From positions 270,196-334,195 of the forward strand of contig CAWJSH010000009.1 of NCBI GenBank assembly GCA_963845465.1: a stretch of 64,000 nt of DNA, read 5' to 3'. Within the stretch, counting starts at the first letter, position 1. Every line of letters starts with the position of its first letter. Shown here in pieces: positions 15,827-60,158 of this stretch. Source of the stretch: an uncultured Acidobacteriota bacterium (GTDB taxonomy: Bacteria; Acidobacteriota; Terriglobia; Acidiferrales; UBA7541). Both the position numbers and the translations under genes were made by a program. The notes beneath the pieces were generated by a model. The model searched no databases. It had not been told where the DNA came from and saw only the letters and a list, made by a program, of their open reading frames with translations.

Positions 15827-15832
15827 GAGCTT

Positions 15833-39869: not shown

Positions 39870-39931
39870 GGAAGCCTCCTCATCGGTCAAGTTCAACGAC
39901 GGGCCGAATGCAATTACACCATCAGCTTGTC

Positions 39932-42547: not shown

Positions 42548-42780
42548 TCGGTTCGATATGGCCGCACCTTTCAGATTCGCTCTGGGTGAAATGTGCTCGA
42601 ACGATGGGCGGGGAATTTGCATGTCGATCGGCCGCGACTTTGCGGCTGTAGGCATTGAAGATTCACAGCGCGCTTACGTTAAGATACAAAAAGATGCAAA
42701 AGCGCTCCGTTGCTGGGGCGGCGCGCAAGATGGCGAATACGCGGTAGCAGGCACTCGGCACTCACCACCGAACAGCGCCA

Positions 42781-44630
42781 GTGCGGGAAGGTACCACAGA
42801 TTTGTTTCGATCGCGGCGGTCATTCCTTCGCTCGTTGAGCCGGTCCGCGCTCGTTCTCTCCTTTGAAAATGTGATTTCGCTGGCTCGCCCGCTCTTCGGG
42901 CGTGGAAAATTGCAAGCCACCTCACAGGCTCCTGCTGTCCGCGAAATCGGCCGATCTCGGCATCAGCTTCATCAACGTCGCGAAAGAAGCCGGGCTCAAC
43001 GTCAAGACGCTCTTCGGCGGCGAACACAAAAACAAATATCTGCTCGAAACCACCGGCTGCGGCGTCGCTTTCTACGATTACGACAACGACGGCTGGCTCG
43101 ATATCTTTCTCGTGAACGGCTCGCGACTCGAAGGTTTCCCCGCGGGCCAAGCCCCGATGTCGCATCTCTTCAAAAATAATCGCGACGGAACTTTTACCGA
43201 CGTCACCGCGAAAGCCGGAGTCGGCCACGCCGGTTGGGGCCAGGGCGTTTGCATCGGCGATTACGACAACGACGGCTACGAAGATCTTTTCGTCACCTAT
43301 TTCGGCAAAAACATCCTCTATCACAACAATGGAAACGGAACGTTCACCGACGTCAGCGAAAAAGCCGGCGTCGCCGGAAGCGGCAAACGCTGGAACACCG
43401 GCTGCGCGTTCGTCGACTACGATCGCGACGGCAAGCTCGATCTGTTCGTCGCCAACTACATCGATCTCGATCTCGCCACCGCGCCCGTTCCCGAATCGGG
43501 CCCGTGCCTCTACAAAGGCGTGATGGTCGCCTGCGGCCCGCCCGGCTTGAACGGCGGAAAAAATATCCTGTATCACAACAATGGCGACGGCACGTTTTCC
43601 GATGTGAGCGAAGCCGCCGGCCTGTTTCAGGCGAACGGCACCTACGGCCTCGGCGTGCTGACCGCCGATTTCGACAACGACGGCTGGCCCGACATCTACG
43701 TCGCGAACGATTCCACCGCGAGCGCGCTCTATCAAAACAAGCACAACGGAAAATTCGTCGATGTCGCGATGGAATCTGGCTGCGCGCTCAGCGCCGACGG
43801 CAAACCGCAAGCCGGAATGGGCATTTCCGCCGGCGATTACGATCTCGACGGGAATCTCGATATCGTGAAGACGAACTTCGCCGGAGACACTCCGTCGCTC
43901 TATCACAATCTCGGCGGCATGACGTTTGAAGACACGACATTCGCCGCGGGCCTCGGCCGCCACACGCAATATCTTGGCTGGGGTGTCGGATTTTTCGATA
44001 TGGACAACGACGGCTGGCCCGACATTTTGATTTGCAACGGCCACGTTTATCCCGAGGTCGAGCAGCTTCGCACCGAAGCCGGCTATCCGCAGCAGAAATT
44101 GCTCTACAAAAATTTGCGCGACGGCCGATTCGACGATGTCTCGTCTGCAAGGCGGACCAGGAATCACCGCGCCGGTCGCCTCGCGCGGCTGCGCGTTCGG
44201 CGATTTCGACAACGACGGCGATCTCGACGTCGTCGTGAATACCGTCAACGATTTCCCGCAGTTGCTGCGCTGCGATTCCACGACGAAAAATAATTGGCTC
44301 AAAGTGCGAACGATCGGAGTGAAGTCGAATCGCAGCGGCATCGGCGCGCGCCTACGCTGCGTGACGACCGTTTCCGGCGAGCAGAAACCGCATTCGCAGA
44401 TCGACGAAGTCCGCAGCGGCGGCAGCTACATCTCGCAAAACGATCTGCGCATTCACTTCGGCATCGGCAAAGCGGAGAAAGTCGATCTCCTCGAAATTCG
44501 CTGGCCCAGCGGGCAGATCGACACGCTGAAAGACATCAAGGCGAACCAGTTGATTTATGTGAAAGAAGGGCAAGGCATCGATCGGACAATTTCGTTTGAT
44601 AAAACGACGCCATCGAAATCCTCGAAATGA
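42781..44630 (+). CDS. CRTAC1-family / ASPIC-UnbV protein 3, Tat-like signal (SRRSFL), frameshifts ~42900 and ~44150
   Basis: YLLETTGCGVAFYDYDNDGWLD, FG-GAP-like repeats, SGGSYISQNDLRIHFGIG. Confidence 0.88.
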
Positions 44631-44719
44631 ATTTGCCCTCGTGTAGTATCGTTTTTGGCGTTTCGACCGCAACGCGCAACTGAAGCGCCGCAATCCACGG
44701 GCCCCGGAGGATTCTCTCA

Positions 44720-45706
44720 ATGAAGCTGTTTTTCTCGCTCCTCACTGCCTCGCTAGCGATTCTGGTTCTCACGCAAACACAAACTCACGTGCGCGCCGCC
44801 GAAGACAAACCCGATCGCACGATCGCCATCACCATCGACGACCTCCCAGCCGGCGCGGCCAACTCGATGACCGCAGCCGAAATCACGTCGATGACCAAGC
44901 AACTGACCGACACGCTGCGCGATCAAAAAGTTCCCGTCGTCGCGTTTGTCAACGAACGCAAGCTCTACTACAACTGGGACGAAGTGAATGAACGCATCGC
45001 CGCGCTCAACATGTGGCTCGACGCGGGCTTCGAGCTTGGCAATCACACCTACGCGCACACTTCGCTCAACGGGCCCGGCGGCCTGAAAGCCTTTGAAGAC
45101 GGCGTGATCCAGGGCGAAAACGTCACGCGCTTGCTGATGACGCAGCATCACCAGACGCTGCGGTATTTCCGCCACCCGTACCTCGACACCGGCCGCGACC
45201 TGAAAACTCGGCGCGAAGCGGAGCAATTCTTGGTCGAGCGTGGCTATCGCATCGCACCGGTCACGATGGATGCCTGGGACTGGATGTTTGCCGGAATTTA
45301 CGACGATGCAAAAAAACGCGGCGATACCGCGCTCCAGCAACAAGTCGTGAAATCCTATATCGACTACACCGACCAGGTGTTCATTTACTTCGAGAAGCTG
45401 TCACGCAATCTGTTCGGTTATGAACCGAGCCAGATCTTGCTGATGCACGCCAATAACCTGGAAGCGGAACACATCGGCGAAGTGCTCGACTTGTTGCGCA
45501 AGCGCGGTTACAGATTCATTCCGCTGGGCCAGGCGTTGAGTGACGCGGTCTACAGCTTGCCGGACGACTTTGTTGCCGAAGGCGGCGGAAGCTGGATCGA
45601 GCATTGGGCGATCACGATGGGCAAGCCGCCGTTGAGCGAGCCTTCGGCGCCCAAGGACATGCGCGATCGCGCGGCGGCGTTGCCGCATCCGCAGACGCAG
45701 CCGTGA
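44720..45706 (+). CDS. Exported polysaccharide deacetylase (NodB-like)
   Basis: Signal peptide; AITIDD, LGNHTYAH, YFRHPY, ILLMH. Confidence 0.9.
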   Translation: MKLFFSLLTASLAILVLTQTQTHVRAAEDKPDRTIAITIDDLPAGAANSMTAAEITSMTKQLTDTLRDQKVPVVAFVNERKLYYNWDEVNERIAALNMWLDAGFELGNHTYAHTSLNGPGGLKAFEDGVIQGENVTRLLMTQHHQTLRYFRHPYLDTGRDLKTRREAEQFLVERGYRIAPVTMDAWDWMFAGIYDDAKKRGDTALQQQVVKSYIDYTDQVFIYFEKLSRNLFGYEPSQILLMHANNLEAEHIGEVLDLLRKRGYRFIPLGQALSDAVYSLPDDFVAEGGGSWIEHWAITMGKPPLSEPSAPKDMRDRAAALPHPQTQP

Positions 45707-45838
45707 GAATCTTTTGCCACCGCAAACGCAAAACGCCATACGCAAAACGCGAGCATTCTGACGCGGTGACGTAAATCACCGCGCGAGTTCAGCGCTCTAA
45801 AATTTCAGGCCAATCTGGAAAAAATCTGCGGAGGCGAA

Positions 45839-46330
45839 ATGACTCAGAAATATTTTTCTAAGTTTGTGTTGGCAGGACTCTGCGTCGCGACGTTGGTGCT
45901 CGGCACATCGGCGCAGATGCCGAATCCCTACGGCGCGCCGATCACGCTGGAGCAAGCGAAGAAAGTCGCCGCTCCCGCGCTCGCGGAAGCTGCGAAGAAC
46001 AATTGGAACATGGCCGTCGCGATCGTCGACCCGTCTGGAAATCTCGTTTACTACGAAAAGATGGACGCGACGCAACTCGGCAGCGCAAACCTCGCTGTCG
46101 AAAAAGCCCGAACGGCAGCCCTTTTCAAGCGCCCATCGAAAACTTTTCAGGATGCCCTGGCCGGCGGCGGTGATGGCTTGCGTGTGCTAAAAGTTCCCGG
46201 CGCAATTCCAATCGAAGGTGGCCTGCCGCTGATGGTGGACGGAAAAATCGCCGGCGCGATCGGCGTTTCCGGCGGCCAAAGCACGCAGGACGGCCAGTGC
46301 GCCAAAGCCGGCGCCGACGCGATCAAGTAA
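45839..46330 (+). CDS. Exported GlcG/HbpS-family heme-binding protein
   Basis: AVAIVDPSGNL, KARTAALF, GGLPL, GAIGVSGG, DGQCAKAG. Confidence 0.9.
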   Translation: MTQKYFSKFVLAGLCVATLVLGTSAQMPNPYGAPITLEQAKKVAAPALAEAAKNNWNMAVAIVDPSGNLVYYEKMDATQLGSANLAVEKARTAALFKRPSKTFQDALAGGGDGLRVLKVPGAIPIEGGLPLMVDGKIAGAIGVSGGQSTQDGQCAKAGADAIK

Positions 46331-46548
46331 ACTCGCTCCAGTCGGAGTCACACGAACAAATCAATCGCTCGCTTGGCATTCAATGCCCCGCGAGCGATTT
46401 TCATTTTTATCGTCGCTCATCGCGAAAACGCGACGTAGTACGAAATTGAGCCTACCTTCTTCATTAGAACAGGTCGATTCTCCTTGCCTCCCCTTTCGGC
46501 AGCGCTTTTGCGCTCGCAACCCCTTTTGGTACGCCCTGGAGGTTCGGA

Positions 46549-46950
46549 ATGGAACATTTTGTCGAAAAACTCGACCATGACCGCCGTTTGTCTCTTCGCC
46601 ACTCCGTTAGCACAGACTTGCGCGTCCGCATGCGCAAGTTCGACGCGCCGGAGCAACGTGCGCGCTCGGAAAATCTTTCGCAGCGCGGCGTGTTTTTCAC
46701 GACCGACTTGCCGCTTAGCAAAGGCTCGTCACTCGATCTGCTCGTCGAAATGCCCGAGCAGGTCACCGGCGTTCCGTCCGCGCAGTGGCTCTGCACGGGC
46801 CACGTGGTGCGCGTTGTGCCGGCGGAGCAGGAGGGCCAGCGCGGCGTCGGCGTGCAATTTGACTTTTACGAAGTGTCGCGGCCGGAACGGCCGCGGTGGG
46901 CGGTAGGCGCGGGCTTGCGCGGACCGCTGGCGGTGCCCGTCGGCCGGTAA
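46549..46950 (+). CDS. Stand-alone PilZ domain protein
   Basis: RxxxR (RLSLR) and NxSxxG (NLSQRG); GGAGG RBS. Confidence 0.82.
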   Translation: MEHFVEKLDHDRRLSLRHSVSTDLRVRMRKFDAPEQRARSENLSQRGVFFTTDLPLSKGSSLDLLVEMPEQVTGVPSAQWLCTGHVVRVVPAEQEGQRGVGVQFDFYEVSRPERPRWAVGAGLRGPLAVPVGR

Positions 46951-47023
46951 CGGCGTTGAGCCGATGAACCTTGGCTCGCGATTGCCATTTCGAGTTGCTG
47001 CATGAAATTTCTGCCGCGCCACG

Positions 47024-47686
47024 TTGCAACGTCGCGAAGGAGACCCTGTGAATCGAGCGAAAAAGACTTTGCCGCATTCAGTGCAGCCAGCTCCCGTCGT
47101 TGCTTCCAAATCATTTTTGGTGCGCCCGACATCGTTTGTATTTTTCGAGAAAAAATCCGGGGTTCGGCGATTCGACGTCCGCGCCGGCGACGACGGGCGC
47201 ATGCCGACGGAGCAGGCAGCGAGTTTGTTGGCGATTCACTGCGTCGCGCGCCAGCAACAGCCGCGTGATTTCGACGTGATGATCGCGGCGGGAGACGACC
47301 TCGTCGAGGGCATCGTGGGCCGCGCGAATAAATTGATTCGCAGTTGCTCAGGCTTCAAGGTGGCCGGCATGCCTTTGAGCCGGCGTCAGCACGAGGTATT
47401 GGCGGCGATCTCGCAGAATCTCAGCAATAAAGAAATCGCGGCGAGGCTGAACGTGTCGGTGCGCACGGTGAAGTTTCACGTTTCCACGCTGCTGGAAAAA
47501 TTTGAGGTGCGCGGCCGCGTGGACTTGATGCTTGAGGCGGCGGAGTTTTTGCCGATCGAAGGCGTGCACAAACGTCCGCCTGGCAAGGCGGCATCGGCTG
47601 CGGCAGCGGGCGCGTTGTTGCCTTTGGCTCCAGCCGCGGCGCGGCTGCGCATCGCGGAGTCGCTCGACCGTCGCGCGGGAGATTGA
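47024..47686 (+). CDS. LuxR-type HTH regulator with an unrecognised N-terminal domain
   Basis: LSRRQHEVLAAISQNLSNKEIAARLNVSVRTVKFHVSTLL; start may be 47051. Confidence 0.85.
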   Translation: MQRREGDPVNRAKKTLPHSVQPAPVVASKSFLVRPTSFVFFEKKSGVRRFDVRAGDDGRMPTEQAASLLAIHCVARQQQPRDFDVMIAAGDDLVEGIVGRANKLIRSCSGFKVAGMPLSRRQHEVLAAISQNLSNKEIAARLNVSVRTVKFHVSTLLEKFEVRGRVDLMLEAAEFLPIEGVHKRPPGKAASAAAAGALLPLAPAAARLRIAESLDRRAGD

Positions 47687-47689
47687 ACG

Positions 47690-48451
47690 GTGAGCGAAAG
47701 TCTGCTTTCGCCTCATCTTAGACAGGTCATTGAACGCGCACGAAAGCGAGCGAAATCACCGATGCAAAAGCGAGCTTTGATCGTCGATACCGAATCCGAA
47801 ACGTGCGACCTCATCGAAAAAGTGCTGACGTCGGTCGGGATCGACTCGCTCACGCTCAATCGCAGCTCCGAAGCGCCGGAGATTTTGCGCGAAGGAAAAT
47901 TCGCCGTCGCGTTCTTCGCGCTGCGGATGACTTCTCCCGACGGGCCGGAGCTCACGCGGCAAATGCGCGACTCAACATTCAACCGCATGACGCCGGTGGT
48001 TTTGATCAGCGACGATCAGCGGCCGACCGCCGTGTCGCAGGGATTTGAAGCAGGCGCGAGTTTCTTCCTCTACAAGCCGGTCGACAAAGAGCGGCTGCTG
48101 CGGCTGGTGCGTGCGACGCAGGCTTCGGCGGAGCACGAACGCCGGCGAACGCGGCGGGTTCCAGTGAAGTCGCGCGTGTCGCTGTCACACGGCTCGCAAC
48201 AGATCGACGGCGAGAGCGTGGACGTCAGCATGGAAGGCGTGCTGGTCAAAGCGACGAAGGCGTTTCCCGTCGGCTCATCCGTCAATGTCGCGATGCATTT
48301 GTCCCAGGGCATGCGACCGGTTGTCGGCGCTGGTTGTGTTGTGCGGCTAAGCGCGGGGAATCAGATGGGGATTCATCTCGGGCGTCTGGAAATGGCGGAG
48401 AGCCAGCGCTTACAGGAGTTTTTGCTGCCGCTTATTCCCGGTGTGAAGTGA
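47690..48451 (+). CDS. Atypical receiver domain + PilZ domain protein
   Basis: REC-like LIVD...FFALRMTSPDG...FFLYKP; PilZ motifs RRTRR and DVSMEG. Confidence 0.82.
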   Translation: MSESLLSPHLRQVIERARKRAKSPMQKRALIVDTESETCDLIEKVLTSVGIDSLTLNRSSEAPEILREGKFAVAFFALRMTSPDGPELTRQMRDSTFNRMTPVVLISDDQRPTAVSQGFEAGASFFLYKPVDKERLLRLVRATQASAEHERRRTRRVPVKSRVSLSHGSQQIDGESVDVSMEGVLVKATKAFPVGSSVNVAMHLSQGMRPVVGAGCVVRLSAGNQMGIHLGRLEMAESQRLQEFLLPLIPGVK

Positions 48452-48496
48452 AATTCTATGAAGTGAATTGCGCGAATTGTATTGAGCGAAGTTAAA

Positions 48497-50338
48497 CTAT
48501 TTCACCGCGATTCCAGTTCCTTCTTTAATCTCGTTGAATTTGTCGATCGAAATCTTTGAAAAATTCTCGACGAGCCCGCTCGGCCACCGCACCTCGACGG
48601 AATCGATCTTCGTCGCCGCGCCCAGTCCGAAGTGAACGCGCATGTCGTTGTTGGAAATGAAGCTCGAACCGCTGCGAACTTCATCAACCAACACTCTTCC
48701 ACCGGCTTTCACTTTGATTCGCGCCCCGATCGCATCGCGCGTCGATCGCAAAGTTTGCGATTGCGCCGGCTGCGTTGTCGAATTCTCCGCATTCGATTTC
48801 GGCGCATACGCTCCCGTCAGATGAAACGCCACCCAATGATTCGGCGTGCGAACCTGATTCACAAGCAAACTCGGCGCCGCGTTCATATTGCTCACGACGG
48901 CCGAAAGCTTCCCGTCGTTCCACAAATCGCCGATCGCCAGCCCGCGCGATGAGCTCGCGTTCGTGATCCCCGGCCCCGCGCTCGCAGAAATATCGGCAAA
49001 CGTCCCGTTGCCGTTGTTGTGATACAGAATTCGCGGCTCCTGAAAATTGCTACCGAGATGCTGCGTATCCACCTCGGGATACACGTGGCCGTTCACCAGA
49101 ATCAGATCGGGCCAGCCGTCGTTGTCGAAATCGAAAAACATCGTGCCCCAACCGAGATATTGCGTGTGCAGTCCGAGTCCAGCGGCGAAAGTGACGTCGT
49201 CAAAAGTTCCGTCGCCATTGTTGCGATAGAGTGTCGCGGTATCGTCGGAAAAATTTGTCTTAAAAATGTCCAGACGACCATCGCCGTTAAAGTCCGCGGT
49301 GGTCGATCCCATGCCGGCCTGCGCGTGTCCGTCCTCGTTGAACGCTGCGCCCGCGGTCACCGCTACATCTTTAAATGTCCCGTCGTGATTGTTGTGATAG
49401 AGGATGCTCGCCGTCGAATCGCACGCCACATAAATATCGGGCCAGCCGTCGTCGTCATAATCGAGCGTCGTCACGCTGAAGCCGTACGCCGCGCTGGTCT
49501 TGTCGATCTGCGCTTTTTTCGTGACGTCTTCAAACGTCCCGTCGCCGCGATTGTGATAAAGAATATTGCTCGCGGTCGGCAATCCTTGCGGGCCGCACAT
49601 CACGGGCACACCCTTCCACAAACAATTCACGCGTTCGCCCGGCGCCGGCGTGCTCGCCAGATCGAAATCGACGTAGTTCGCGACCATCAAGTCGAGATGG
49701 CCGTCGCGGTCGTAATCGACGAACGCGCAGCCCGTGCCCCACGCCTTGCCTGTGCCGGCGACCCCGGCCTTTTCGCTGACGTCGGTAAACGTCCCGTCCC
49801 CGTTGTTGTGATACAGCACATTTTTGCCGTAGTAGGTGACGAACATGTCGGGCCAGCCGTCGTTGTCGTAATCGCCGACGCACACGCCCTGTCCCCAACC
49901 GGTATGGACGAGGCCGGCTTTGCGCGTGATGTCGGTGAACGTGCCGTCGTGATTGTTGTGATAGAGATGATTCGACGGCGCCGCGCCATCAGCGCTCTTG
50001 CCGCCGTTTGCGGCCGGCGCTTTTTCGTCGAGCTTCGTTCCATTCACGATGAAAATGTCCGGCCAGCCGTCGTTATCGGCGTCAAAAATCGCCACGCCCG
50101 TCCCCGTCGTCTCGATGATGTATTTTTTCGTCGCGACGCCGCCGAACGTATTCACCATCGTCAGCCCAGCTTTTTTCGCAACGTCTATAAAGTAAGCGAG
50201 AGGTTTCGACGGCTGTTTCTGTTCCGCGTTTTGATGCGTCTCGGCCGCCAGAGCCGCACACGCGAAACACAACATCGCGAAAAAGATGCGAGACCAGCGC
50301 GCAACTCCGCGCCTTCGGCGACGATCGGCACTTTCCAT
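48497..50338 (-). CDS. CRTAC1-family / ASPIC-UnbV protein 4
   Basis: Arg-rich signal peptide; YIIETTGTGVAIFDADNDGWPD; SGSSFISNNDMRVHFGLG. Confidence 0.92.
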   Translation of the reverse strand: MESADRRRRRGVARWSRIFFAMLCFACAALAAETHQNAEQKQPSKPLAYFIDVAKKAGLTMVNTFGGVATKKYIIETTGTGVAIFDADNDGWPDIFIVNGTKLDEKAPAANGGKSADGAAPSNHLYHNNHDGTFTDITRKAGLVHTGWGQGVCVGDYDNDGWPDMFVTYYGKNVLYHNNGDGTFTDVSEKAGVAGTGKAWGTGCAFVDYDRDGHLDLMVANYVDFDLASTPAPGERVNCLWKGVPVMCGPQGLPTASNILYHNRGDGTFEDVTKKAQIDKTSAAYGFSVTTLDYDDDGWPDIYVACDSTASILYHNNHDGTFKDVAVTAGAAFNEDGHAQAGMGSTTADFNGDGRLDIFKTNFSDDTATLYRNNGDGTFDDVTFAAGLGLHTQYLGWGTMFFDFDNDGWPDLILVNGHVYPEVDTQHLGSNFQEPRILYHNNGNGTFADISASAGPGITNASSSRGLAIGDLWNDGKLSAVVSNMNAAPSLLVNQVRTPNHWVAFHLTGAYAPKSNAENSTTQPAQSQTLRSTRDAIGARIKVKAGGRVLVDEVRSGSSFISNNDMRVHFGLGAATKIDSVEVRWPSGLVENFSKISIDKFNEIKEGTGIAVK

Positions 50339-50433
50339 GTCGTCGTTCGATGGTAGGTGCGCAGCTTGACCCGGTCAAGACAGTCGCTCGGCGAGACGCT
50401 CGCGGAGTCCGCCTTGCGTGTTACGATTTTTGG

Positions 50434-52371
50434 GTGAATCCACGATCCAATTTTTCGGTCCACCGGTCGCTCATCTTAGGCGCCGCTCTAGCCGGCGTTC
50501 TCGCGCTGCCTCTCCGCGCACCGGCCCAGAACTCCGCTGCGCAGGCCGACCAAATCTATGCGCAGGGAATTACGGCCCTGCAGCAAGGCGATCTCGCTGT
50601 GGCAAAGGCCGACTTCGAGCGAGTTATCGCGATCCAACCACGTAGCGCCGACGCGCACAATTCCCTCGGCTGGGTTCTGCTCGCGCAAAAACAGGTCGAT
50701 CCCGCAATCAAACAATTCGGCGCCGCGCTCGATCTTCGTCCCGATTTTTTTCAGGCGCACATCAATATGGCCAACGCGTACCTCGCGAAGGGCGATCCGA
50801 AGCAGGCATCGCGTTCCGCGCGCGAAGCGATTCGCTTTGCCCCTACGGAGTCCGAAGCCTATCGCACGCTGGCGCGCTGCCTCGACGCAGCGGGCGACAC
50901 CCCCGGCGCCATCAGGCAGATGCAAAAGGGGCTCGAACTCGATCCCGGTCGCATCGATCTGCTCGATGAAATGGGTACGTTGATCGTTCGCCAGGTTTCG
51001 CTGCAAGCGGCGGCTGCGTCTGGCGCGAACACGCCGCCGGTGATGGAAGAAAAAATCGGCGGCGGCACAGGACCAAAGTCCGCAACAAGCCCGTCTCCAA
51101 ATCCCGACTCTGGCGCGAACGCCACCAAGGCGGATGCGACCCCGGCCGCGCCTCCCGTCACACTGAAAGACGCTCAAAAGGATTACACCGAGGCGCTTCG
51201 CATCAACCCCAACTACGCGCCGGCGCAGCTACATCTCGGCGTCCTGCAATATCAGGACAAAAATCTCGAAGAAGCGATCCCGCATCTCGAGAAGGCGACC
51301 GAACTCATGCCCGCCGAGCCTCAAGCGCATCTCTATCTCGGCAGAGCGCTACGTGATAAAGGCGATCCGGACGGAGCTTTGCGTGAATTCGCCGCTGCTG
51401 TCGATCTCGACCCCAGCCTCGTCGATGCGCAAAGCGCGCTCGGCGTCGTTGAGCAGCGCCGCGGCAATGTGGATGACGCTCTCACATCGTTCCGCCACGT
51501 CATCAAGGCACAGCCCAACAATTCCGACGCGCACAACAACCTCGGCTTGGCGCTGCTCCAAACCGGCGACGCCGACGGCGCGATCAGCGAATTTCAAGCC
51601 GCGCTGAAGATCCGGCCCGACAATCCCGGCTACCAGACCAATCTCGGCGTCGCCTACCTGCAAAAGACCGATTTCGTTGCTGCCGCGACCCAGTTTCAAA
51701 CCGCATTGAAGGCCACACCGCAGGACCCGACGCTTCACTACGATCTCGGCCTCGCCCTCAAACTGCAAGACAAGCTTCCCGAAGCCACGGCCGAATTTCG
51801 CGTTGCGGAACAAATCGATCCGCTTCAGGCCGACGTCCACTACACGCTCGGCGTCACCCTCTGGCAGCAGGGCGATTTTCAGCCGGCCGCGGACGAATTG
51901 CAGAAAACGGTTCAGGTGAAGCCCGACTACGCCGAGGCGTACTACACGCTCGGCACCGTGCTGAAGCAACAAAACAAGCTCCAGGACGCCGCTGCCGCGC
52001 TTCGCGAGGCGATCCGTTTGCAACCCGACTTCGCAGGCGCGCACACCACGCTCGCTGCCGTGCTTCGCCAACTCGGAGACACCGAAGGCGCCGCGCGCGA
52101 AGCCAAGGCCGGAATTGAAATCGGGAAAGAGAAAACGAATCAGCAAGCCGCTTTATTCGCCACAAATTCCGGCAAGCGCCTGCTCAACGCTGGGGATTTC
52201 GACGGCGCGATCTCGCAGTTTCGCTCCGCGATCAACGCCACGCCAAACTACGCGCCCGCTCACTATCAATTGGGATTGGCGCTACAGCGAAAAGGCGAAA
52301 AAGACGAAGCTACGAAGGAATTTCAGCGCGCCGCGGAATTGGACCCCAAGTCCGCCCCCGCGTCGCACTGA
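50434..52371 (+). CDS. Exported multi-TPR protein
   Basis: Signal peptide from GTG 50434; many TPR repeats (DAHNSLG, EAYYTLG, PAHYQLG). Confidence 0.9.
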   Translation: MNPRSNFSVHRSLILGAALAGVLALPLRAPAQNSAAQADQIYAQGITALQQGDLAVAKADFERVIAIQPRSADAHNSLGWVLLAQKQVDPAIKQFGAALDLRPDFFQAHINMANAYLAKGDPKQASRSAREAIRFAPTESEAYRTLARCLDAAGDTPGAIRQMQKGLELDPGRIDLLDEMGTLIVRQVSLQAAAASGANTPPVMEEKIGGGTGPKSATSPSPNPDSGANATKADATPAAPPVTLKDAQKDYTEALRINPNYAPAQLHLGVLQYQDKNLEEAIPHLEKATELMPAEPQAHLYLGRALRDKGDPDGALREFAAAVDLDPSLVDAQSALGVVEQRRGNVDDALTSFRHVIKAQPNNSDAHNNLGLALLQTGDADGAISEFQAALKIRPDNPGYQTNLGVAYLQKTDFVAAATQFQTALKATPQDPTLHYDLGLALKLQDKLPEATAEFRVAEQIDPLQADVHYTLGVTLWQQGDFQPAADELQKTVQVKPDYAEAYYTLGTVLKQQNKLQDAAAALREAIRLQPDFAGAHTTLAAVLRQLGDTEGAAREAKAGIEIGKEKTNQQAALFATNSGKRLLNAGDFDGAISQFRSAINATPNYAPAHYQLGLALQRKGEKDEATKEFQRAAELDPKSAPASH

Positions 52372-52421
52372 ACTCGCGCGAATGAATCCGATGAAAAAGT
52401 AGAAGGGGCGATCTCTAGCGA

Positions 52422-53672
52422 TCAGTTCGTGGTGCGCAGTGCCACCAACTCCGTCGAGACCGGCACGCCCCGCGTCACTTTGACGCGAATCACCGCTTCA
52501 AACGGCTTCAACTGCCCCGTCTGTGCGACCGACAGCCTCAGCAACAGCTGCTCCACCGAATTCTTGTTGCAAACGTATTCGACCGCTGCTTGCGTCCCAA
52601 TCGTCGTCTCGCCCGCCAGGATAAGCACCGCCTGACTCGGTTCCAGGCCCTTCACCGCCGCGATCACGGCGTAGTCTTCCGTCAGCGGATCATCTTGTGG
52701 TGTTCCCAGGAACTCTTTCGGCTCTCCGGGCTGCGGATGCACGTTCAAAATCTCCGGATCGCCTTTACGCGCCCCGGCCGTAACTCGATGAAATACAAAA
52801 TCTTCCGTGCCGGGAATCTCAAGAAGCGTCAGATTTTCCAGCGGCGAGCCTACAAAGATCAGATTGTTGTTTTTCGCGTCGTCGAGGGAAAACAAACTGC
52901 CACGCTTCACTCGAATCCCGTGATGAAAACTCTCGAACAAGTGATCCAGCTCGTGAACCGCCAAGACCTCTCCGACTCCGGTGTAGTGGTCGAAAATGAT
53001 CGGGTTCTTGTCTTTGCTCGATTCGTAGTACCGCAACCCCACGTCCGGCCGCCCGACAAACTTCGCATTGCTGAAAATTACCCAGGGCTCGTCCTGACCT
53101 GAGACAAATCCGTTCCAGAACACCCTCATGGCTTCAGGAGGCGTGTTCACGTCGTGCGAAATTCCCGCCTGCGCCGAGTTCCGATTTGATACCAGGCTCA
53201 AAATCACGACGGCAGCCACAGCCAGCAGAAACGTCAGCGTCGCGATCGCAAAGATCCATTTTCCCCGAGGGGCGGCCACTTCTAGCGCGGGCTGTGCCGT
53301 CCCGCCTGCATTCGCGGGGGCCGCAGATCGAACCGGCGCCGGGGCACGATGATGGAACGCGAGGACATACGTTCCCTTTGGCAGCTCAACAATGATTGGG
53401 TCCTCAGCGCCGTCCCCTGCGTAGTATTCCGAAAGCTTTACGCGCAGCCGTCCCGCTTGGACGCGCACCATGGAATCGAGCTGCGGATCGAAGTCCGCCG
53501 ATCGCCCAAACACTTCCGTCGCAATTTGATATTCCTTAATGGAAGTCCCTGGGTGATCAAGGACGTGGCGGGCCAAATACCTGAGCAGTTTGCACAGGGA
53601 TTCCGACCCGTGCAGCACATGGCTGTTCGTTAGCCGATCGATTTGACTTAAATTTTGCTCGCGTTCTGTCAA
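52422..53672 (-). CDS. Membrane-anchored putative transcriptional regulator: cytoplasmic HTH-like domain, one TM, periplasmic domain
   Basis: N-terminal LLRYL...IKEYQIATEVFGRSADFDPQLDSMVRVQAGRLRVKLSEYY; TM WIFAIATLTFLLAVAAVVIL; divergent from the TBDR. The DNA-binding assignment is inference. Confidence 0.7.
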   Translation of the reverse strand: MTEREQNLSQIDRLTNSHVLHGSESLCKLLRYLARHVLDHPGTSIKEYQIATEVFGRSADFDPQLDSMVRVQAGRLRVKLSEYYAGDGAEDPIIVELPKGTYVLAFHHRAPAPVRSAAPANAGGTAQPALEVAAPRGKWIFAIATLTFLLAVAAVVILSLVSNRNSAQAGISHDVNTPPEAMRVFWNGFVSGQDEPWVIFSNAKFVGRPDVGLRYYESSKDKNPIIFDHYTGVGEVLAVHELDHLFESFHHGIRVKRGSLFSLDDAKNNNLIFVGSPLENLTLLEIPGTEDFVFHRVTAGARKGDPEILNVHPQPGEPKEFLGTPQDDPLTEDYAVIAAVKGLEPSQAVLILAGETTIGTQAAVEYVCNKNSVEQLLLRLSVAQTGQLKPFEAVIRVKVTRGVPVSTELVALRTTN

Positions 53673-54117
53673 CTGCCCCTCGTGACACCCATGGTTAACC
53701 GGAGTGTAACAACCCTCACATGTGCTTGCAAGCCGGGGCTTTATGAACTGTAACAGTATCAGACGCGCTGAGACTTCAATCTAACATAGAAAAAATTTTA
53801 ATAGTAGACACCGTGATTTCCCGGTCCGGCCTGTCGAGGGCCGGACCTCTCGTTTGCGCTTTTTGTTGCACGCTGCACCGCAAGCGACGTGCTTTTTGGG
53901 GTGCATTTCGTCGAGGCAGTTGTCCGGCTGGGAGGGTGTCCCGATGTACATGCCATTCGCTGGGCGTGTCTGCCGTCCATTTCTCCCTCAACCATTCTGT
54001 TCTACGTTCATCACATAACAATTGTTTCCGTCACGCGGCGGGGTGTCTTCGTCGAGACCGCGCATCGGAATCATCTTCACTGTTTGGGGTTTCGGGTTCG
54101 TTCCGCAAGGAGGAGAG

Positions 54118-57100
54118 ATGGTGAGGCGATCTTTTTGGGTGGGATTGCTCGTTGTGTCTTTAGCAGTGGGCTTGCACGTTCCTCAAGCGGTTGCGCAAGC
54201 TGTGTTTGGCAGCATTTTCGGTACGGTCACTGATCCTCAGGGTGCCGGCGTTGTCGGCGCGAAGGTGACAATTACAGACGTCGCCAAAGGCACAGTCGAA
54301 GAAACGACCACCAACGATAGCGGCAACTTTACAGTCACGCACTTGATTCCGGACCTCTACAACGTCCGGATCGAAGGCGCCGGTTTCAAAGTATTTGAAG
54401 TCAAGAACATCCAGGTTTCCGCGGACGCTTCGGTGCGCCAGGATGCCACGCTGACCGTCGGCGACGTTACACAAACCGTCGAAGTCAGCGGCGAGGTCGA
54501 GCAACTCAAGACCGACCGCGCCGACGTTTCCATCGAATTCAACTCGAAATACGTCGAAGACCTGCCGATTCTCAATCGCAACTTCACCAACTTCGAGCTT
54601 CTCTCCCCCGGCACGCAGAAAATCGTCGGATGGAGCCACGCCGCGACTGAGAACCCTCAGGGCGCGCAGCAGATCTTCGTGGACGGCCAGCACTTCAGCG
54701 GCACTTCCTTCCAGCTCGATGGCACCGACAACCAGGATCCCATTTTGGGAATCATCGTCGTCAACCCGAACCTCGACGCCATCCAGGAAACCAAGATCGC
54801 GCTTCAGAACTACGACGCGGAGTTCGGCAAAGCCACCGCTGGCGTGATCACCGTCCAGACCAAGTCCGGCACCAACGAACTCCATGGCAGCGGCTTCTAC
54901 AACTATCGTGGCGATGGCCAACAGGCTCGCGATCCGTTTACTCAACCCGCCTCCGTCCCACTGCCACTCTTTAGTTACAAAGACTTCGGCGTCGCCGCAG
55001 GCGGCCCGATCATCAAGGACAAACTCTTCTTCTTTGGCGACTATCAGGGTGTTCGCGAAGTCAGCGGCGAGTCCAACCAGCAGACAATCCCGACGGCCGA
55101 GGTTCTCAGCACTTGCAACCCGGCCACAAACCTCACCAGCGCCACCCCGGGCTTCTGCGACCTCAGCCAATATCTCGGCAACGTTCCGGGCGGTGGTCAA
55201 ATTTACAATCCGAACACCGGGAACCCCCTTACCGGCACTGGCCGCACCGCCTTCGTCAACAACATGATTCCCATCGGCATGATCTCGTCGCAGGCCGCTG
55301 CGGTCCTGGCTGAGTTTCCCGCGCCGCAGAACTCCGCGCTGACGAACAACTTCGTCGGATCCGGTTCGGGCAATTTCAACCAGAACGCCTTCGACACCCG
55401 CATCGATTACAACGCGCCGCATGGCTTTCAAGTCTTCGGGCGCTTCAGCTTGGATTACTTCAATCTGAACGGCAAAGGCAGCCTCGGTTCTCTCGGCGGT
55501 CTCGGCTTCGGGCCCGGCGGCCTCAACGGCCAGTCCACCGTTCACAACTACAGCTTGGCCACCGGCTTCGACAAAGCGATCGGCACCAACTTGCTGACCG
55601 ACTTCCGCTTCGGATACTTCAAATACAATCCGCAAACCGCCTATTCCGATGCGAGCAGCAACCCGATGACCGCGTTCGGCATTCCCGGAATGAACCTCGG
55701 CACCCCCGAGACCGGCGGCTTGTCCTCGTTCTTCCCGACAATCAACGGCAGCAACAGCGGCACCGCTCAGCAGGAAGGCCTGCCGAACTTTGGCGACGGC
55801 CTCAACGTCGGCCGCTGCAACTGCCCGCTCACCGAGAGCGAACAGCAATTCCAGTTCGTCAACAACTGGACCAAGATCAAGGGCAACCACCAGTTCAAGT
55901 TCGGCGCCGACATCCGTTACGCGATGAACCTCCGTGTACCGTCCGACGCGAACCGCACCGGTGAGCTCAACTTCGACCAGAACGGCACTTCGCTCGCCGG
56001 CAACGGCGGCTTGGTGCTCGGCACCTTCCTGCTCGGTGACGTAAACGAACTTCAGCGTTTCGTCAGCACCAGCTTGAACGCGGCAGAGCGGCAGAAGCGC
56101 TGGTTCTTCTATGGCCAGGACACCTGGCGCGTCAGCACCAAGCTGACCTTTAACTACGGCTTGCGCTGGGAAATCTACGATCCCGAATACGTCAACGGTA
56201 AGGGCCAGGGCGGTTTCGCCAACCTCGACCAAGGCGTCATCCGCGTCGCCGGCTACGGCAACGTCGGACTCAACGGCAATATCGACAATACCTACAAGGC
56301 GTTCGCGCCTCGCATCGGTATCGCTTACCAGTTCGATCCCAAGACCGTCGTTCGCCTCGGCTATGGCCGCAGCTTCGACATCGGCGTCTTCGGCTCCAAC
56401 TTCGGTCACGTCGTGACGCAGAACCTGCCGGTTCTTGCCAACCAGACGATTCAGGACACCAACCTGAATTCTGCCGCGACCAATAACCTGAGCCCAGTGT
56501 TCACTCTTGCGCAGGGCGCACCGGCGTTCGACTTCGCTCCGGTGATCTCGGGCATTTCGTCTGCCGGTACGCTTCCGCTCCTCGGTCCCGACGGCACATC
56601 GAGCTCCAGAATCCGTCCCACGATCCAGCGTTTGCCGACTCTCGACGCGTGGAACGCTACCATCCAGCGCCAAGTCACTTCGAACATGTCGGTCGAAATC
56701 GCGTACATCGGCAACAAGGGCACGCATACGTTCAACACCGACGGCCCGTCCTACAACATCAACGCACCGGCCGCCGGCGGTGGCACCAACCTCATTACGT
56801 GTCCGACAGCGACCACCTGCGCACCGAGCGGATTCGTTCCGTTCGTGCCGCAAGCCGATCGCCGTCCGTTCTTCCAGAACGGCGTGCCGTCGTTCACTTA
56901 CCCGGGCTACACGACCCCGTTGGGCGCTCCTCTCACTTGCTGCGCGGTTGACCTGACGTACTTCGGCAACGACGCCAGCAGCAACTACGAAGCTCTTCAG
57001 ATGAAGGTGGATCGCCGCTTCAGCCACGGCCTACAGTTCTTGGCCCACTACACCTACGGCCATTCCAACGCGTACAACTCCAACTACTACTCCGTCAATC

Positions 57101-57798
57101 CGAAGCTTGCGTACGGTCCCGACCAGTACAATCGCCGCAACGTCTTCGTGATCAGCACGGTGTACGAGCTCCCGATCGGCCAAGGCAAGTGGCTGCTCGG
57201 TAGCGCCAACCGTTTGGAGAACCTGTTGGTCGGTGGATGGCAAATCACCAATACGCTCAACTACAGCAGCGGCCTCCCGTGGACTGCTTCGATCGGCGAA
57301 TGCGGCTTGATCGAAGATACCGGCCCATGCCGCCCGAATATGATTCCAGGCCAGGGATTCAACGTCGGTCCCAAGAAAATCAACGGCCAGTGGTATGAGT
57401 TCACTCCCGTCGCTCCGTTGACCTACAACGTCGGTCCGGCAGATGCGGGCGTTGACTCCTGCACGTTGGCTCGTCCGACATCTGGCCCGTTCGCGCTGCC
57501 CGGTTGCGGTCAGATCGGTAACGCCGGCTTCGACACCTTCTTCGGTCCACGAGGCTTCTTCTCCGACATGGCCCTCTCGAAGACCTTCGGGATCACGGAG
57601 CGCATCAAGGCGCAGTTCCGCTTCGATGCCTTCAACGTGTTCAACCATCCTGTGTTGGGCTTCAACGCCAACCAGGGCAACACCTGCGTGGACTGCACGG
57701 GCAATGCCGGTCAGATTACCGACATTGAACAGGACGGCTCGCCAGGTTCGCCGACCGGCATGCGCCAGTTGCAGTTCGGTCTGCGCGTGACTTTCTAA
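54118..57798 (+). CDS. TonB-dependent receptor, Oar-like, with N-terminal carboxypeptidase-regulatory-like domain
   Basis: Signal peptide; GTVTDPQGAGVVGAKVT, LPILNRNF, KSGTNELHGS; C-terminal QLQFGLRVTF; AGGAGG RBS. Confidence 0.93.
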   Translation: MVRRSFWVGLLVVSLAVGLHVPQAVAQAVFGSIFGTVTDPQGAGVVGAKVTITDVAKGTVEETTTNDSGNFTVTHLIPDLYNVRIEGAGFKVFEVKNIQVSADASVRQDATLTVGDVTQTVEVSGEVEQLKTDRADVSIEFNSKYVEDLPILNRNFTNFELLSPGTQKIVGWSHAATENPQGAQQIFVDGQHFSGTSFQLDGTDNQDPILGIIVVNPNLDAIQETKIALQNYDAEFGKATAGVITVQTKSGTNELHGSGFYNYRGDGQQARDPFTQPASVPLPLFSYKDFGVAAGGPIIKDKLFFFGDYQGVREVSGESNQQTIPTAEVLSTCNPATNLTSATPGFCDLSQYLGNVPGGGQIYNPNTGNPLTGTGRTAFVNNMIPIGMISSQAAAVLAEFPAPQNSALTNNFVGSGSGNFNQNAFDTRIDYNAPHGFQVFGRFSLDYFNLNGKGSLGSLGGLGFGPGGLNGQSTVHNYSLATGFDKAIGTNLLTDFRFGYFKYNPQTAYSDASSNPMTAFGIPGMNLGTPETGGLSSFFPTINGSNSGTAQQEGLPNFGDGLNVGRCNCPLTESEQQFQFVNNWTKIKGNHQFKFGADIRYAMNLRVPSDANRTGELNFDQNGTSLAGNGGLVLGTFLLGDVNELQRFVSTSLNAAERQKRWFFYGQDTWRVSTKLTFNYGLRWEIYDPEYVNGKGQGGFANLDQGVIRVAGYGNVGLNGNIDNTYKAFAPRIGIAYQFDPKTVVRLGYGRSFDIGVFGSNFGHVVTQNLPVLANQTIQDTNLNSAATNNLSPVFTLAQGAPAFDFAPVISGISSAGTLPLLGPDGTSSSRIRPTIQRLPTLDAWNATIQRQVTSNMSVEIAYIGNKGTHTFNTDGPSYNINAPAAGGGTNLITCPTATTCAPSGFVPFVPQADRRPFFQNGVPSFTYPGYTTPLGAPLTCCAVDLTYFGNDASSNYEALQMKVDRRFSHGLQFLAHYTYGHSNAYNSNYYSVNPKLAYGPDQYNRRNVFVISTVYELPIGQGKWLLGSANRLENLLVGGWQITNTLNYSSGLPWTASIGECGLIEDTGPCRPNMIPGQGFNVGPKKINGQWYEFTPVAPLTYNVGPADAGVDSCTLARPTSGPFALPGCGQIGNAGFDTFFGPRGFFSDMALSKTFGITERIKAQFRFDAFNVFNHPVLGFNANQGNTCVDCTGNAGQITDIEQDGSPGSPTGMRQLQFGLRVTF

Positions 57799-57824
57799 CA
57801 ACGAAAAGCAACCACACCCCAAAC

Positions 57825-57858
57825 AAAACGGGGAGCCCTCGCGGGCTCCCCGTTTTTT
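57825..57858 (+). terminator. Intrinsic terminator after the TBDR
   Basis: AAAACGGGGAGCCC-TCGC-GGGCTCCCCGTTTTTT. Confidence 0.88.
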
Positions 57859-57896
57859 ATGTTCTAATCTTGGTTCGATTTATTTTGAGATTCGCA

Positions 57897-59027
57897 ATGT
57901 CGAAGTTCGATTTCCGATCAAAGTTTCAATTTCGCTGCCCACTTTGCTTTCTTGTTGGCTTGCTCCTCGTTGGTCTCGGCTCGCCGCTCGCCTTCGGTCA
58001 GACTCAAACCGCGCCCAAGCCAAACGCGCCTGTGCCGCGTTCCACCGGCTCCGCCGCTGATGCGCCGGCAGCAGCCACCGGCGAAGACCCGGCTTCCTCG
58101 CCATTCGGTACACCGCGCAAGCTCCTCCGCGAAGGAAAATTCGACGACGCCATCGCCACTCTCGAGGATCTTCAAACAAAAAATCCCGCGATGCCCGGTC
58201 TTTCTCACGAACTCGGCGTCGCCTACTACAAAAAGGGCGACTATCTCAAAGCCATCGCCGCCTTACAGAAAGCGGAAAAGGAAAATCCAAAAGACGGCGA
58301 GTCCACCCAGCTTCTCGGAATCTCTGCGTATCTCGCCGGTCGCCCCAATGAAGCGATTCCGCCGCTCGAAAAAGTGCAGACGTGGTTTCCGAACGCCAAC
58401 GTTGACGCTGCCTATATCCTGGGCGTCTGCTACATCCAGACGCGAGACTATCCAAAGGCCCGCGGCGCGTTCGCCAAAATGTTCAGCGTCCCGCCAGACT
58501 CTGCCGCGGCCTATCTTTTCACCGCCCGCATGTTGCTCCGCCAGGATTTCGGCCCCATCGCCGAAGAGTATGCGCAAAAAGCCGCGTCCATCGATCCCAA
58601 GCTGCCGCTCGCTCACAATCTGCTCGGCGAGATTTATCTGTTTCACTCCCGGATTCCAGAAGCTATCGCCGAATTTCAAAAAGAGCTCGCGCTCAATCCT
58701 GGTTACGCGCCCGCATACTACAAACTCGCCGACGCCTATTCACACATTCAAAAATTCGATGAGGCCGAGAAGCTTCTTCAGCGCTCCATTTGGCTCGACG
58801 CAACCTCCACTGGTCCGTATATATTGATGGGCAAGGTTTTGCAGAAAAAGGGAGAGTCCGAATTGGCCGTTCGTTCGCTGCAGCGCGCTGTCGCGATGGA
58901 TCCCAACAATCCGATGACGCACCACTTGCTCGGTCAGGCCTACCGCGAAATGGGCCGCGAAGAAGACGCCGCGCGAGAACTCAGCGCCGCCGGCCAACTC
59001 GAAGACCGCCAAAACCCCAAGCCATGA
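57897..59027 (+). CDS. Exported TPR protein
   Basis: Signal peptide and TPR repeats (LAHNLLGEIY, AYYKLADAY, THHLLGQAY). Confidence 0.88.
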   Translation: MSKFDFRSKFQFRCPLCFLVGLLLVGLGSPLAFGQTQTAPKPNAPVPRSTGSAADAPAAATGEDPASSPFGTPRKLLREGKFDDAIATLEDLQTKNPAMPGLSHELGVAYYKKGDYLKAIAALQKAEKENPKDGESTQLLGISAYLAGRPNEAIPPLEKVQTWFPNANVDAAYILGVCYIQTRDYPKARGAFAKMFSVPPDSAAAYLFTARMLLRQDFGPIAEEYAQKAASIDPKLPLAHNLLGEIYLFHSRIPEAIAEFQKELALNPGYAPAYYKLADAYSHIQKFDEAEKLLQRSIWLDATSTGPYILMGKVLQKKGESELAVRSLQRAVAMDPNNPMTHHLLGQAYREMGREEDAARELSAAGQLEDRQNPKP

Positions 59028-59240
59028 CCTCGTTATCCCAATTTATTGCCGATTGTCATCCTGAGCGAAGCGAAGGATCTCAGCCGCTGCCCACTGCGCC
59101 GATCGCGTGTGCGAATCCGCGTACGGGCGCAGCATTGCTGCGCCCCAGGCCCGCACGATCAGCCCGACTCGGCTGGACCTGGTTTTTCTTCTTCGGCCCA
59201 CGCCACAACACCCTCGTTCCTACTGGAGCGAACTGCCGCC

Positions 59241-60158
59241 ATGCCTCATAAGTCCTACAACATCGTCGGCCTCGGCGAACTCCTCTGGGACGTCCTCCCC
59301 AAAGGCAAAGAACTCGGCGGCGCTCCCGCCAACTTCGCCTACATGACCAGCCTTCTCGGCGATCACGGCATCGTCGCCAGCCGCGTCGGCAGCGATGCGC
59401 TGGGCCGCACCGCCGGACGCCGCCTCGAACGTATCGGCCTGCGCAGCAAATTCCTCCAGATCGACACGAAGCACCAGACTGGCATCGCCAACGTCGCTGT
59501 CGATCCCGCCGGTCAGCCCACTTTTGAAATTGTCGAAAACGTCGCGTGGGATTTTTTCGAGTGGACTCCCGAATGGCAGAAGCTCGCGGCCACCGCCGAC
59601 GCGGTTTGCTTCGGCACGCTCGCGCAGCGCGCGCCGCAATCGCGCTCCACCATTCGTTCTTTTCTTCAGGAAGTTGGCCGCGGCACCACGCGCATCTTCG
59701 ACATGAATCTGCGCCAGAATTTTTATTCGCCCGAAATGATCGACGAATCGTTCAAGCTTTCCGACGTCGTCAAACTCAATGAAACCGAATTGCCGATCGC
59801 GGTCAAATCGCTCGGCGGCACTTTCACCGATGAGGAGCGTTCCGCTCGCTGGCTGCGCGACAAATACGGTCTGCGCCTCGTCTGCATCACGCGCGGCGCG
59901 AAGGGCAGCCTGCTCGTCAGCTCCACCGAAGTTCACCAGCACAGCGGCGTTCGCATTGTCGTCGCCGATACCGTCGGCTCCGGCGACGCCTTCACCGCCG
60001 CCCTCATCTACCACTACCTGCGCCGCGCCTCGCTCGCCACGATGAACGAAGCCGCCAATCGCATGGGTGCCTGGGTCGCCAGCCAAACCGGCGCCACCCC
60101 TCCGCGCGACGACTACTACCTCCAGCAAATCCGCAGCGCCATCACCGCCGAAGAATAA
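59241..60158 (+). CDS. PfkB-family carbohydrate kinase (fructokinase-like)
   Basis: GLGELLWD, GGAPAN, VKLNETE, DTVGSGDAF. Confidence 0.93.
   Translation: MPHKSYNIVGLGELLWDVLPKGKELGGAPANFAYMTSLLGDHGIVASRVGSDALGRTAGRRLERIGLRSKFLQIDTKHQTGIANVAVDPAGQPTFEIVENVAWDFFEWTPEWQKLAATADAVCFGTLAQRAPQSRSTIRSFLQEVGRGTTRIFDMNLRQNFYSPEMIDESFKLSDVVKLNETELPIAVKSLGGTFTDEERSARWLRDKYGLRLVCITRGAKGSLLVSSTEVHQHSGVRIVVADTVGSGDAFTAALIYHYLRRASLATMNEAANRMGAWVASQTGATPPRDDYYLQQIRSAITAEE

Follow-up and report, generated by a model that had tools for sequence, protein, structure and literature searches.

What do bacteria use CRTAC1/UnbV proteins for, and can the genes around them tell us? The question is posed by a 64,000-nucleotide stretch of the genome of an uncultured soil acidobacterium (the window; C9:270196-334195 of a 5.73-Mb, 9-contig genome), which holds four CRTAC1-like genes, each encoding by Pfam an FG-GAP propeller and a UnbV_ASPIC domain. 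Two of them, in the span 42781-59027, stand with two tetratricopeptide repeat (TPR) genes, a candidate membrane-anchored regulator and a TonB-dependent receptor (TBDR). To our knowledge, CRTAC1/UnbV proteins have no established function anywhere, humans included. They form one of the largest paralogue families of the Acidobacteriota, found in 36 of 61 sampled genomes in up to 26 copies each; the genome studied here has 15 UnbV_ASPIC matches, four inside the window and a fifth 32 kb beyond it. On the evidence of sequence, the association of CRTAC1, TPR, TBDR and regulator genes is real and is conserved in the related genomes examined. We give roughly an even chance to the more specific proposal that it constitutes a conserved Acidobacteriota envelope module for TonB-dependent uptake of a carbohydrate-type substrate, resembling a polysaccharide utilization locus (PUL) with new accessory proteins. 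The module is defined by gene content, linkage, fusions, fold and conservation, and from these we infer binding, docking, location, direction of transport and regulation.

An earlier reading of the letters alone (the sequence-only reading) had proposed the order CRTAC1, divergent TPR, transmembrane protein, Oar-like TBDR and second TPR, and Pfam confirms it. From left to right the span runs CRTAC1-b, an insert of about 4 kb, CRTAC1-a, the divergent TPRa, the candidate regulator REG, an Oar-type TBDR and TPRb, with a PfkB kinase next (positions are those of the window; L numbers denote related loci):

42781-44630, + strand: CRTAC1-b, with Tat-type signal (from 42781), FG-GAP body (42902-44293) and UnbV_ASPIC tail (44136-44630) in three frames (Pfam, three-frame translation)
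44720-45706, + strand: polysaccharide deacetylase, first gene of the insert (Pfam Polysacc_deac_1, E 1e-12)
45839-46330, + strand: HbpS-like (GlcG/DUF336-type) protein (Pfam HbpS-like, E 5e-35)
46549-46950: small probable PilZ protein, in the insert
47024-47686, + strand: LuxR/GerE-type DNA-binding protein (Pfam GerE, E 4e-17), at the same place in L120
47690-48451, + strand: response-regulator receiver and PilZ protein (Pfam Response_reg, PilZ)
48497-50338, - strand: CRTAC1-a, exported Ca2+-loop FG-GAP propeller and UnbV_ASPIC protein with an Arg-rich signal peptide (Pfam)
50350-52371, + strand: TPRa, TPR protein with an export signal, divergent from CRTAC1-a and probably starting near 50434 (many TPR Pfam models)
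52422-53672, - strand: REG, 416-aa protein with one transmembrane helix, candidate membrane-anchored one-component regulator
53748-53763: imperfect palindrome CTGTAAC-N-GTATCAG between REG and the TBDR, candidate operator or promoter element
54022-57798, + strand: Oar-type TBDR, true start probably the ATG at 54118 (Pfam CarboxypepD_reg and OMP_b-brl_4)
57825-57856, + strand: terminator-like hairpin between the TBDR and TPRb (14-bp stem, 9 GC pairs, T run)
57870-59027, + strand: TPRb, exported TPR protein downstream of the TBDR (Pfam TPR models)
59046-60158, + strand: PfkB-family sugar kinase after TPRb (Pfam PfkB, E 1e-38), at the same position in L092 and L120

This order recurs in relatives, and the nearest loci to the CRTAC1 genes of the window come from metagenome-assembled genomes of Acidobacteriaceae/Terriglobales. 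In L002 and L043, counterparts of the gene after the TBDR, the TBDR itself, REG, the TPR gene, CRTAC1-a and CRTAC1-b all stand in window order; L092 keeps the order without REG and with PfkB; and L120 has the entire span, insert included. Position-for-position orthologues are 66-72% identical for CRTAC1-a and 78-85% for CRTAC1-b, TPRa is 43-53% identical to the TPR protein at the same position in L002, L004, L008, L043 and L092, and TPRb is 60% identical to the L092 gene at its position. The two CRTAC1 genes are directly convergent in L002, L003, L043 and L092; because they are so in relatives other than L120, we regard the deacetylase-to-PilZ block (44720-48451) as an insert. Its HbpS-like family also adjoins CRTAC1 in L008, L013 and L019. 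As side observations, the parts of the insert that are typical of cyclic di-GMP signalling might connect the module with a biofilm or matrix state, and L120 carries about 900 bp with a small PIN-like open reading frame (ORF; L120:9284-9634, a weak match) between TPRa and CRTAC1-a, where the longest ORFs of the window are 11 bp apart.

Could such a grouping arise with no functional link, three large families of exported proteins simply piling up in paralogue-rich regions with an envelope or carbohydrate theme? All three families are indeed large in this genome, which has 50 TBDR loci, at least 33 TPR loci and 13 CRTAC1 loci in 8 clusters. Nonetheless, a TBDR is found no more than 10 kb from seven of the eight CRTAC1 clusters, where random placement gives a mean of 1.85 (p=2e-4), and a TPR gene no more than 2 kb from six, against a random mean of 0.46. 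Among 80 related CRTAC1 loci, all Acidobacteriota by content and compared with random positions in the genome of the window, a TPR gene stands within 300 bp of CRTAC1 in 55% (3.7% at random), a TBDR within 10 kb in 62% (23% at random; 31 of 41 among loci with full flanks), and both in 51% (4.2% at random). Shared ancestry is part of this 80-locus signal, and since the loci are partly orthologous, an independent phylum-wide sample was drawn, with one CRTAC1 match from each of 20 evenly spread Acidobacteriota genomes and 19 matched controls, taken from the same contig where length allowed and otherwise from another contig of the same genome. A TPR neighbour was found in 14 of the 20 CRTAC1 regions and in 1 of the 19 controls (p=3e-5), the sole such control also containing a CRTAC1 gene; a TBDR within 10 kb was found in 7 of 20 and 0 of 19 (p=0.005), and a multihaem cytochrome likewise in 7 of 20 and 0 of 19 (p=0.005). 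Enrichment of CRTAC1 and TPR genes near TBDRs, whose absence would have counted against the sequence-only reading, is thus strong in the genome itself, in the 80 loci and in the 20 genomes. Near-empty controls, permutation p values of 2e-4 or lower, fusions that arose independently in both orders and a TBDR subclade linked to CRTAC1, the last two described below, make a mere accumulation of unrelated families very improbable indeed.

The proposal of a multi-gene envelope system is well supported because this enrichment is joined by two further lines of evidence, protein fusions and receptor phylogeny. At least eight proteins fuse TPR and CRTAC1 in one chain, with the TPR part N-terminal in three (C1:47557, C2:575518-577788 and L058) and C-terminal in five (C4:548816-552745, L013, L019, L051 and L069). 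When the 36 full-length TBDRs of the Oar type in this genome are placed on a tree, those linked to CRTAC1, seven in all, require 4 state changes, as against 6.6 in shuffles, none of 500 shuffles reaching as low as 4; the window TBDR falls in a starred clade together with two other TBDRs of the genome, all of them CRTAC1-linked. Such a subclade suggests co-evolution rather than casual neighbourhood. TBDR, TPR and CRTAC1 genes also form tight one-strand strings at C1:61080-67534 and in L009, L031 and L070. Outside the window, the 36 kb of C1:31841-67534 in the same genome contain, besides TPR genes and a TPR-UnbV fusion, three TBDRs of the Oar type and four or more CRTAC1 genes; the C1 string is part of this larger array.

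At the same time, the phylum-wide sample makes TPR the constant partner of CRTAC1 (70%), TBDRs and multihaem cytochromes being frequent but optional (35% each). The window itself encodes such a cytochrome, next to a transporter:

31991-33940, + strand: heptahaem cytochrome c-TPR fusion, outside the module span (seven CxxCH motifs and TPR)
30587-31975, + strand: MFS sugar transporter, preceding the heptahaem cytochrome-TPR gene by 16 bp

Along its whole length the heptahaem protein shares 50-51% identity with the product of the gene that directly follows the TBDR in L002 and L006, the slot that plain TPRb fills in the window; this slot accordingly takes either a plain TPR protein or a cytochrome-TPR. 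ORFs with at least three CxxCH motifs occur in 19 of the 80 related loci and in 7 of the 20 phylum-wide loci. When the unannotated ORFs of 100 CRTAC1-centred loci were clustered, the recurrent neighbours were a heptahaem cytochrome (12 loci), GH13, LacI and the MalK ATPase (9 each), AhpC/redoxin and a GH63-like hydrolase (8 each), and GH31 and GH127 (7 each). AhpC/redoxin genes and multihaem cytochromes near CRTAC1 hint at redox chemistry. The AhpC/TSA-redoxin protein stands beside CRTAC1 at L095:13472-14122 and at seven other loci.

These observations bring in a different account, in which TPR and CRTAC1 together form the functional unit, in many cases with a multihaem cytochrome, and act as an autonomous periplasmic enzyme or redox complex, and the TBDR is a co-regulated supplier of substrate that is not docked to it and has no part in a SusD-like arrangement. 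The constancy of TPR (14 of 20) against the alternation of TBDR and multihaem cytochrome (7 of 20 each) would follow from such an account, as would fusions that join TPR to CRTAC1 and never to a TBDR, the exchange of plain TPRb for heptahaem-TPR in L002 and L006, the recurrence of AhpC/redoxin genes and the Tat signals on some CRTAC1 copies. Tat signals are typical of proteins that are exported already folded. In Planctomycetota, moreover, CRTAC1 family genes lie between haem-protein genes, as neighbours of hydrazine-synthase-like genes (PMC12758564). The CRTAC1-linked TBDRs are, however, a subclade of their own, which suggests co-evolution, the one-strand TBDR-TPR-CRTAC1 strings are tight, and no redox cofactor motif was seen in CRTAC1. 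On balance we regard an autonomous TPR-CRTAC1 unit as unlikely, though a serious contender.

The architecture of the receptor raises the question of whether transport need be inward at all. The window TBDR has a CarboxypepD_reg domain (Pfam, E 7e-19) and an OMP_b-brl_4, or Oar-type, barrel (PF25183) that covers positions 2-838 of 838 (E 3.5e-182); no Plug model is listed by Pfam at E<=0.01, its expected place being residues 146-279 or so, and no SusC model of NCBIfam matches, the one match there being to a haem receptor and below threshold. In Myxococcus xanthus the TonB-dependent transporter Oar is required for secretion of the PopC protease (PMC6434023), and an Oar-type TBDR could similarly work outwards here, secreting CRTAC1 proteins, TPR proteins or both from the periplasm to the surface or medium. 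The CarboxypepD_reg and OMP_b-brl_4 build agrees with this, the Sec or Tat signals of CRTAC1 and TPR proteins would take them to the periplasm only, and cargo genes beside their own transporter would explain the linkage. The recurrent neighbours, on the other hand, are catabolic (glycoside hydrolases, LacI, MalK, PfkB), as suits import, secretion of the PopC kind has only one known example to date, and many CRTAC1-TPR loci have no TBDR nearby. We therefore consider export distinctly improbable.

What, then, might the CRTAC1 proteins contribute to an uptake module? The four DxDxDG-repeat propeller proteins noticed in the sequence-only reading, at 2667, 13642, 42781 and 48497, are all recovered by Pfam FG-GAP_3, in 5-6 stretches (E 1e-45 to 1e-56), and the neighbours it gave them are likewise present, by Pfam a deacetylase and HbpS-like protein, a HisKA_3 kinase and GerE-type regulator, and a Ysc84(SYLF)-OmpA gene. 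The two copies outside the module are:

13642-15429, - strand: CRTAC1-c, beside the Ysc84(SYLF)-OmpA gene (Pfam)
2667-4103, - strand: CRTAC1-d, with a Tat-type signal in another frame at about 4300-4400 (Pfam)

CRTAC1-c has an envelope context unlike that of the TBDR module, its flanks (within 12407-17508, - strand) encoding the Ysc84(SYLF)-OmpA fusion and a BBP2 (OmpL-like) porin. UnbV_ASPIC (PF07593) scores above cut-off in the 48497, 13642 and 2667 copies; in CRTAC1-b the body at 42902-44293 matches FG-GAP_3 only, and the UnbV_ASPIC match, at about 44337-44552 (C9:314532-314747), is in another frame. The Ca2+ loops have the form Dx[DN]xDG, and the DxDxDG columns are invariant among 47 homologues. 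The AlphaFold2 (AF2) model of CRTAC1-a (mean confidence, pLDDT, 89) has as its top Foldseek match murine CRTAC1 (9etn_A; E 1.2e-29, TM-scores 0.67/0.73, 610 columns), a relationship also found by phmmer (E 5e-17), followed by the GlcNAc lectins AAL2 and PVL, integrin alphaV propellers and PL11 rhamnogalacturonan lyases. No EGF model appears in Pfam scans of the window CRTAC1 proteins, which represent a bacterial short form without the EGF-like Ca2+-binding domain. NCBIfam has no specific family for CRTAC1, REG or the TBDR. Most close CRTAC1 homologues (at least 74% identity) bear the automatic JGI name 'enediyne biosynthesis protein E4'; this name is annotation carry-over and not function, and Pfam scans of the larger ORFs of the window found no polyketide synthase or other enediyne genes. 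As for export, twin-arginine signals had been ascribed to two of the four copies, and the motifs do exist (SRRSFLRSL at 42781 and KRRDFLSGAAG upstream of the 2667 copy), but they lie in a different frame from the propeller bodies. Roughly one in seven CRTAC1 homologues has a Tat-like signal, the remainder being mostly Sec-like.

The TPR proteins fared differently from the role first suggested for them, that of SusD-like partners of the TBDR. TPRa and TPRb match generic TPR models only, in Pfam and NCBIfam alike, and neither is a SusD-family lipoprotein; both have Sec-type signal N-termini, and neither N-terminus contains a lipobox cysteine. 'SusD-like' is for these proteins an analogy at best.

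REG has the layout of a candidate membrane-anchored regulator. In its AF2 model (pLDDT 77) an N-terminal, winged-helix-like part (helices 24-39, 47-53 and 68-85 and a hairpin at 93-108) precedes a hydrophobic transmembrane helix at 137-165, beyond which lies a folded, predicted periplasmic domain of about 250 residues (pLDDT mostly 75-93). The one-helix layout is kept in eight orthologues, and REG is divergent from a TBDR in all eight loci that have it and in one paralogue of the same genome. Its best Pfam relative is Trans_reg_C at E 0.07 (13.7 bits, cut-off 26.2), with no match at 0.01. A fold search gave no match at E<=0.001 and faint hints to an S-layer anchoring domain and BcsB; the polyubiquitin rows of a PDB sequence search with REG were set aside as spurious, having no passing stretch. 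The palindrome between REG and the TBDR is kept, with at most four mismatches and at a similar offset, in seven of nine orthologous intergenic regions, whereas 20 shuffles produced no match; conserved TTGCAA and TGAAAC/TGAGAC blocks flank it. It is a single site, with no second copy elsewhere in the window, including the CRTAC1-a/TPRa promoter region.

The genes around the module agree with a carbohydrate theme. Pfam finds in the window GH13, GH63-like and GH37 trehalase enzymes, a transketolase, a DeoC aldolase, a HAD phosphatase and short-chain dehydrogenases/reductases; the carbohydrate-active enzymes (GH13, GH63-like, GH37 and the deacetylase), PfkB and REG, all traits of PULs, lie in or beside the span. 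The two hydrolases nearest CRTAC1-b are present in L120 too:

38340-40181, - strand: GH13 alpha-amylase, near CRTAC1-b (Pfam)
39932-42655, - strand: GH63/MGH1-like hydrolase, adjoining CRTAC1-b (Pfam)

Taken together, the uptake module might work as follows. Consider a cell that meets an oligo- or polysaccharide-like substrate. The TBDR would bring the substrate over the outer membrane, while the TPR proteins, as docking adaptors, would keep the CRTAC1 propellers at or near the transporter, joined there in some relatives by a heptahaem cytochrome. The propellers may then use their Ca2+-loop face to bind the substrate or to process it, in the manner of the GlcNAc lectins and PL11 lyases nearest to them in fold, and the products would pass on to glycoside hydrolases encoded nearby, to the PfkB kinase and to sugar transporters of the inner membrane. 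The periplasmic domain of REG could sense the substrate, and REG would in turn act through the conserved palindrome to control the promoter region between itself and the divergent TBDR.

Several observations weigh against this uptake module. Many of the 80 related loci are orthologous, so that their counts are not independent events, and the background for them was drawn from one genome. A TBDR lies within 10 kb of only 35% of the phylum-wide CRTAC1 loci, and a multihaem cytochrome is equally frequent; the core unit may accordingly be TPR-CRTAC1, serving in redox chemistry instead of binding. The ordinary signal peptides of the TPR proteins, lacking a lipobox, do not indicate a surface lid of the SusD kind. 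A strong terminator-like hairpin (57825-57856) separates the TBDR from TPRb and suggests that genes downstream of the TBDR are expressed at a lower level or separately. Finally, the DNA-binding domain of REG is below the Pfam threshold, and the fold matches of its periplasmic domain are weak.

Is CRTAC1-b, split as it is, a working gene at all? Frameshifts of +1 split two CRTAC1 copies, those at 42781 and 2667. In CRTAC1-b, an extra base near 42938 and another at about 44144-44146 spread the gene across three frames; both bases are absent from L120, which is 96% identical in DNA, and from contigs of four soil metagenomes (X1-X4), and L120 has its own, differently placed indels in the same gene. 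The CRTAC1-b body is, moreover, 79-85% identical to intact orthologues (L002, L003, L005, L006, L028, L043 and L092), and further genes are split as well: the trehalase (60383-62204), the 2667 copy, which is cut off from its Tat signal, and a number of TBDR loci outside the window. For these reasons the CRTAC1-b frameshifts are probably assembly errors rather than decay. A real pseudogene is the less likely reading, two long-read-like assemblies breaking the gene at different places. The check used related metagenome contigs and the relative L120 rather than reads of the strain itself; no public sequencing run was found to hold this genome, the best word share being 0.36, in soil metagenomes. 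The assembly thus looks indel-prone, and apparent pseudogenes in this genome are not to be trusted.

Regardless of the specific mechanism, the partnership turns an uncharacterized family into a testable system, with a candidate transporter, adaptor, binder or enzyme, sensor and operator-like site. What the instance in the window adds is a regulator, an operator-like site, a subclade of TBDRs and the exchange of plain TPR for cytochrome-TPR. Literature searches turned up no paper that connects ASPIC/UnbV/CRTAC1-like proteins with TonB receptors, SusD or PULs; in Solibacter the CRTAC1/UnbV family appears in a list of paralogues (PMC3174227). One may go a step further and imagine, tentatively and in the knowledge that the idea is more probably wrong than right, that the Acidobacteriota, lacking SusD, possess a nutrient-capture architecture of their own, in which a dedicated clade of Oar-type TBDRs and TPR adaptors docks CRTAC1 Ca2+ propellers or, interchangeably, heptahaem cytochromes, and uptake of soil glycans or other organic matter is coupled to binding at the envelope and possibly to redox chemistry. 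If true, this would for the first time set the CRTAC1/UnbV family, which has no established role from bacteria to humans, in a biochemical context. It would do so in a phylum that is among the most abundant in soil, and whose uptake of polymers is poorly understood.

Compared with known systems, the module is in each case partly familiar. The UnbV_ASPIC name derives from enediyne polyketide cassettes, in which we likewise know of no function for UnbV, but scans of the window show neither polyketide synthase nor enediyne genes. Animal CRTAC1/ASPIC (9etn) shares the Ca2+-loop FG-GAP beta-propeller followed by a UnbV_ASPIC domain; the window proteins differ in lacking the EGF-like domain, in their bacterial signal peptides, in an identity of only about 19% and in the arrangement of their genes, which form multi-copy arrays among TPR and TBDR genes. 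Myxococcus xanthus Oar, which we take to be built of CarboxypepD_reg and a large Oar-type barrel, is matched in that build by the window TBDR, whereas no PopC-like protease is present here and the context is catabolic. REG resembles ToxR/CadC-type regulators and SusR in its candidate cytoplasmic, winged-helix-like N-terminal domain, single transmembrane helix, C-terminal periplasmic domain and transcription divergent from a likely target; it departs from them in a Trans_reg_C match of only E 0.07 and in a periplasmic domain of no described family. The SusC/SusD PULs of Bacteroidota offer a further parallel: like them, the module has a TonB transporter with an N-terminal CarboxypepD_reg-type domain, followed directly by the gene of a helical-repeat protein, and it also encodes additional exported binding proteins and a membrane-spanning regulator, close to glycoside hydrolases and a sugar kinase. 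It differs from them in having no SusD-family domain, TPR proteins without a lipobox cysteine and a TBDR of the OMP_b-brl_4 Oar type that no NCBIfam SusC model matches, and the partners of its TBDR are CRTAC1 propellers and, in relatives, heptahaem cytochromes.

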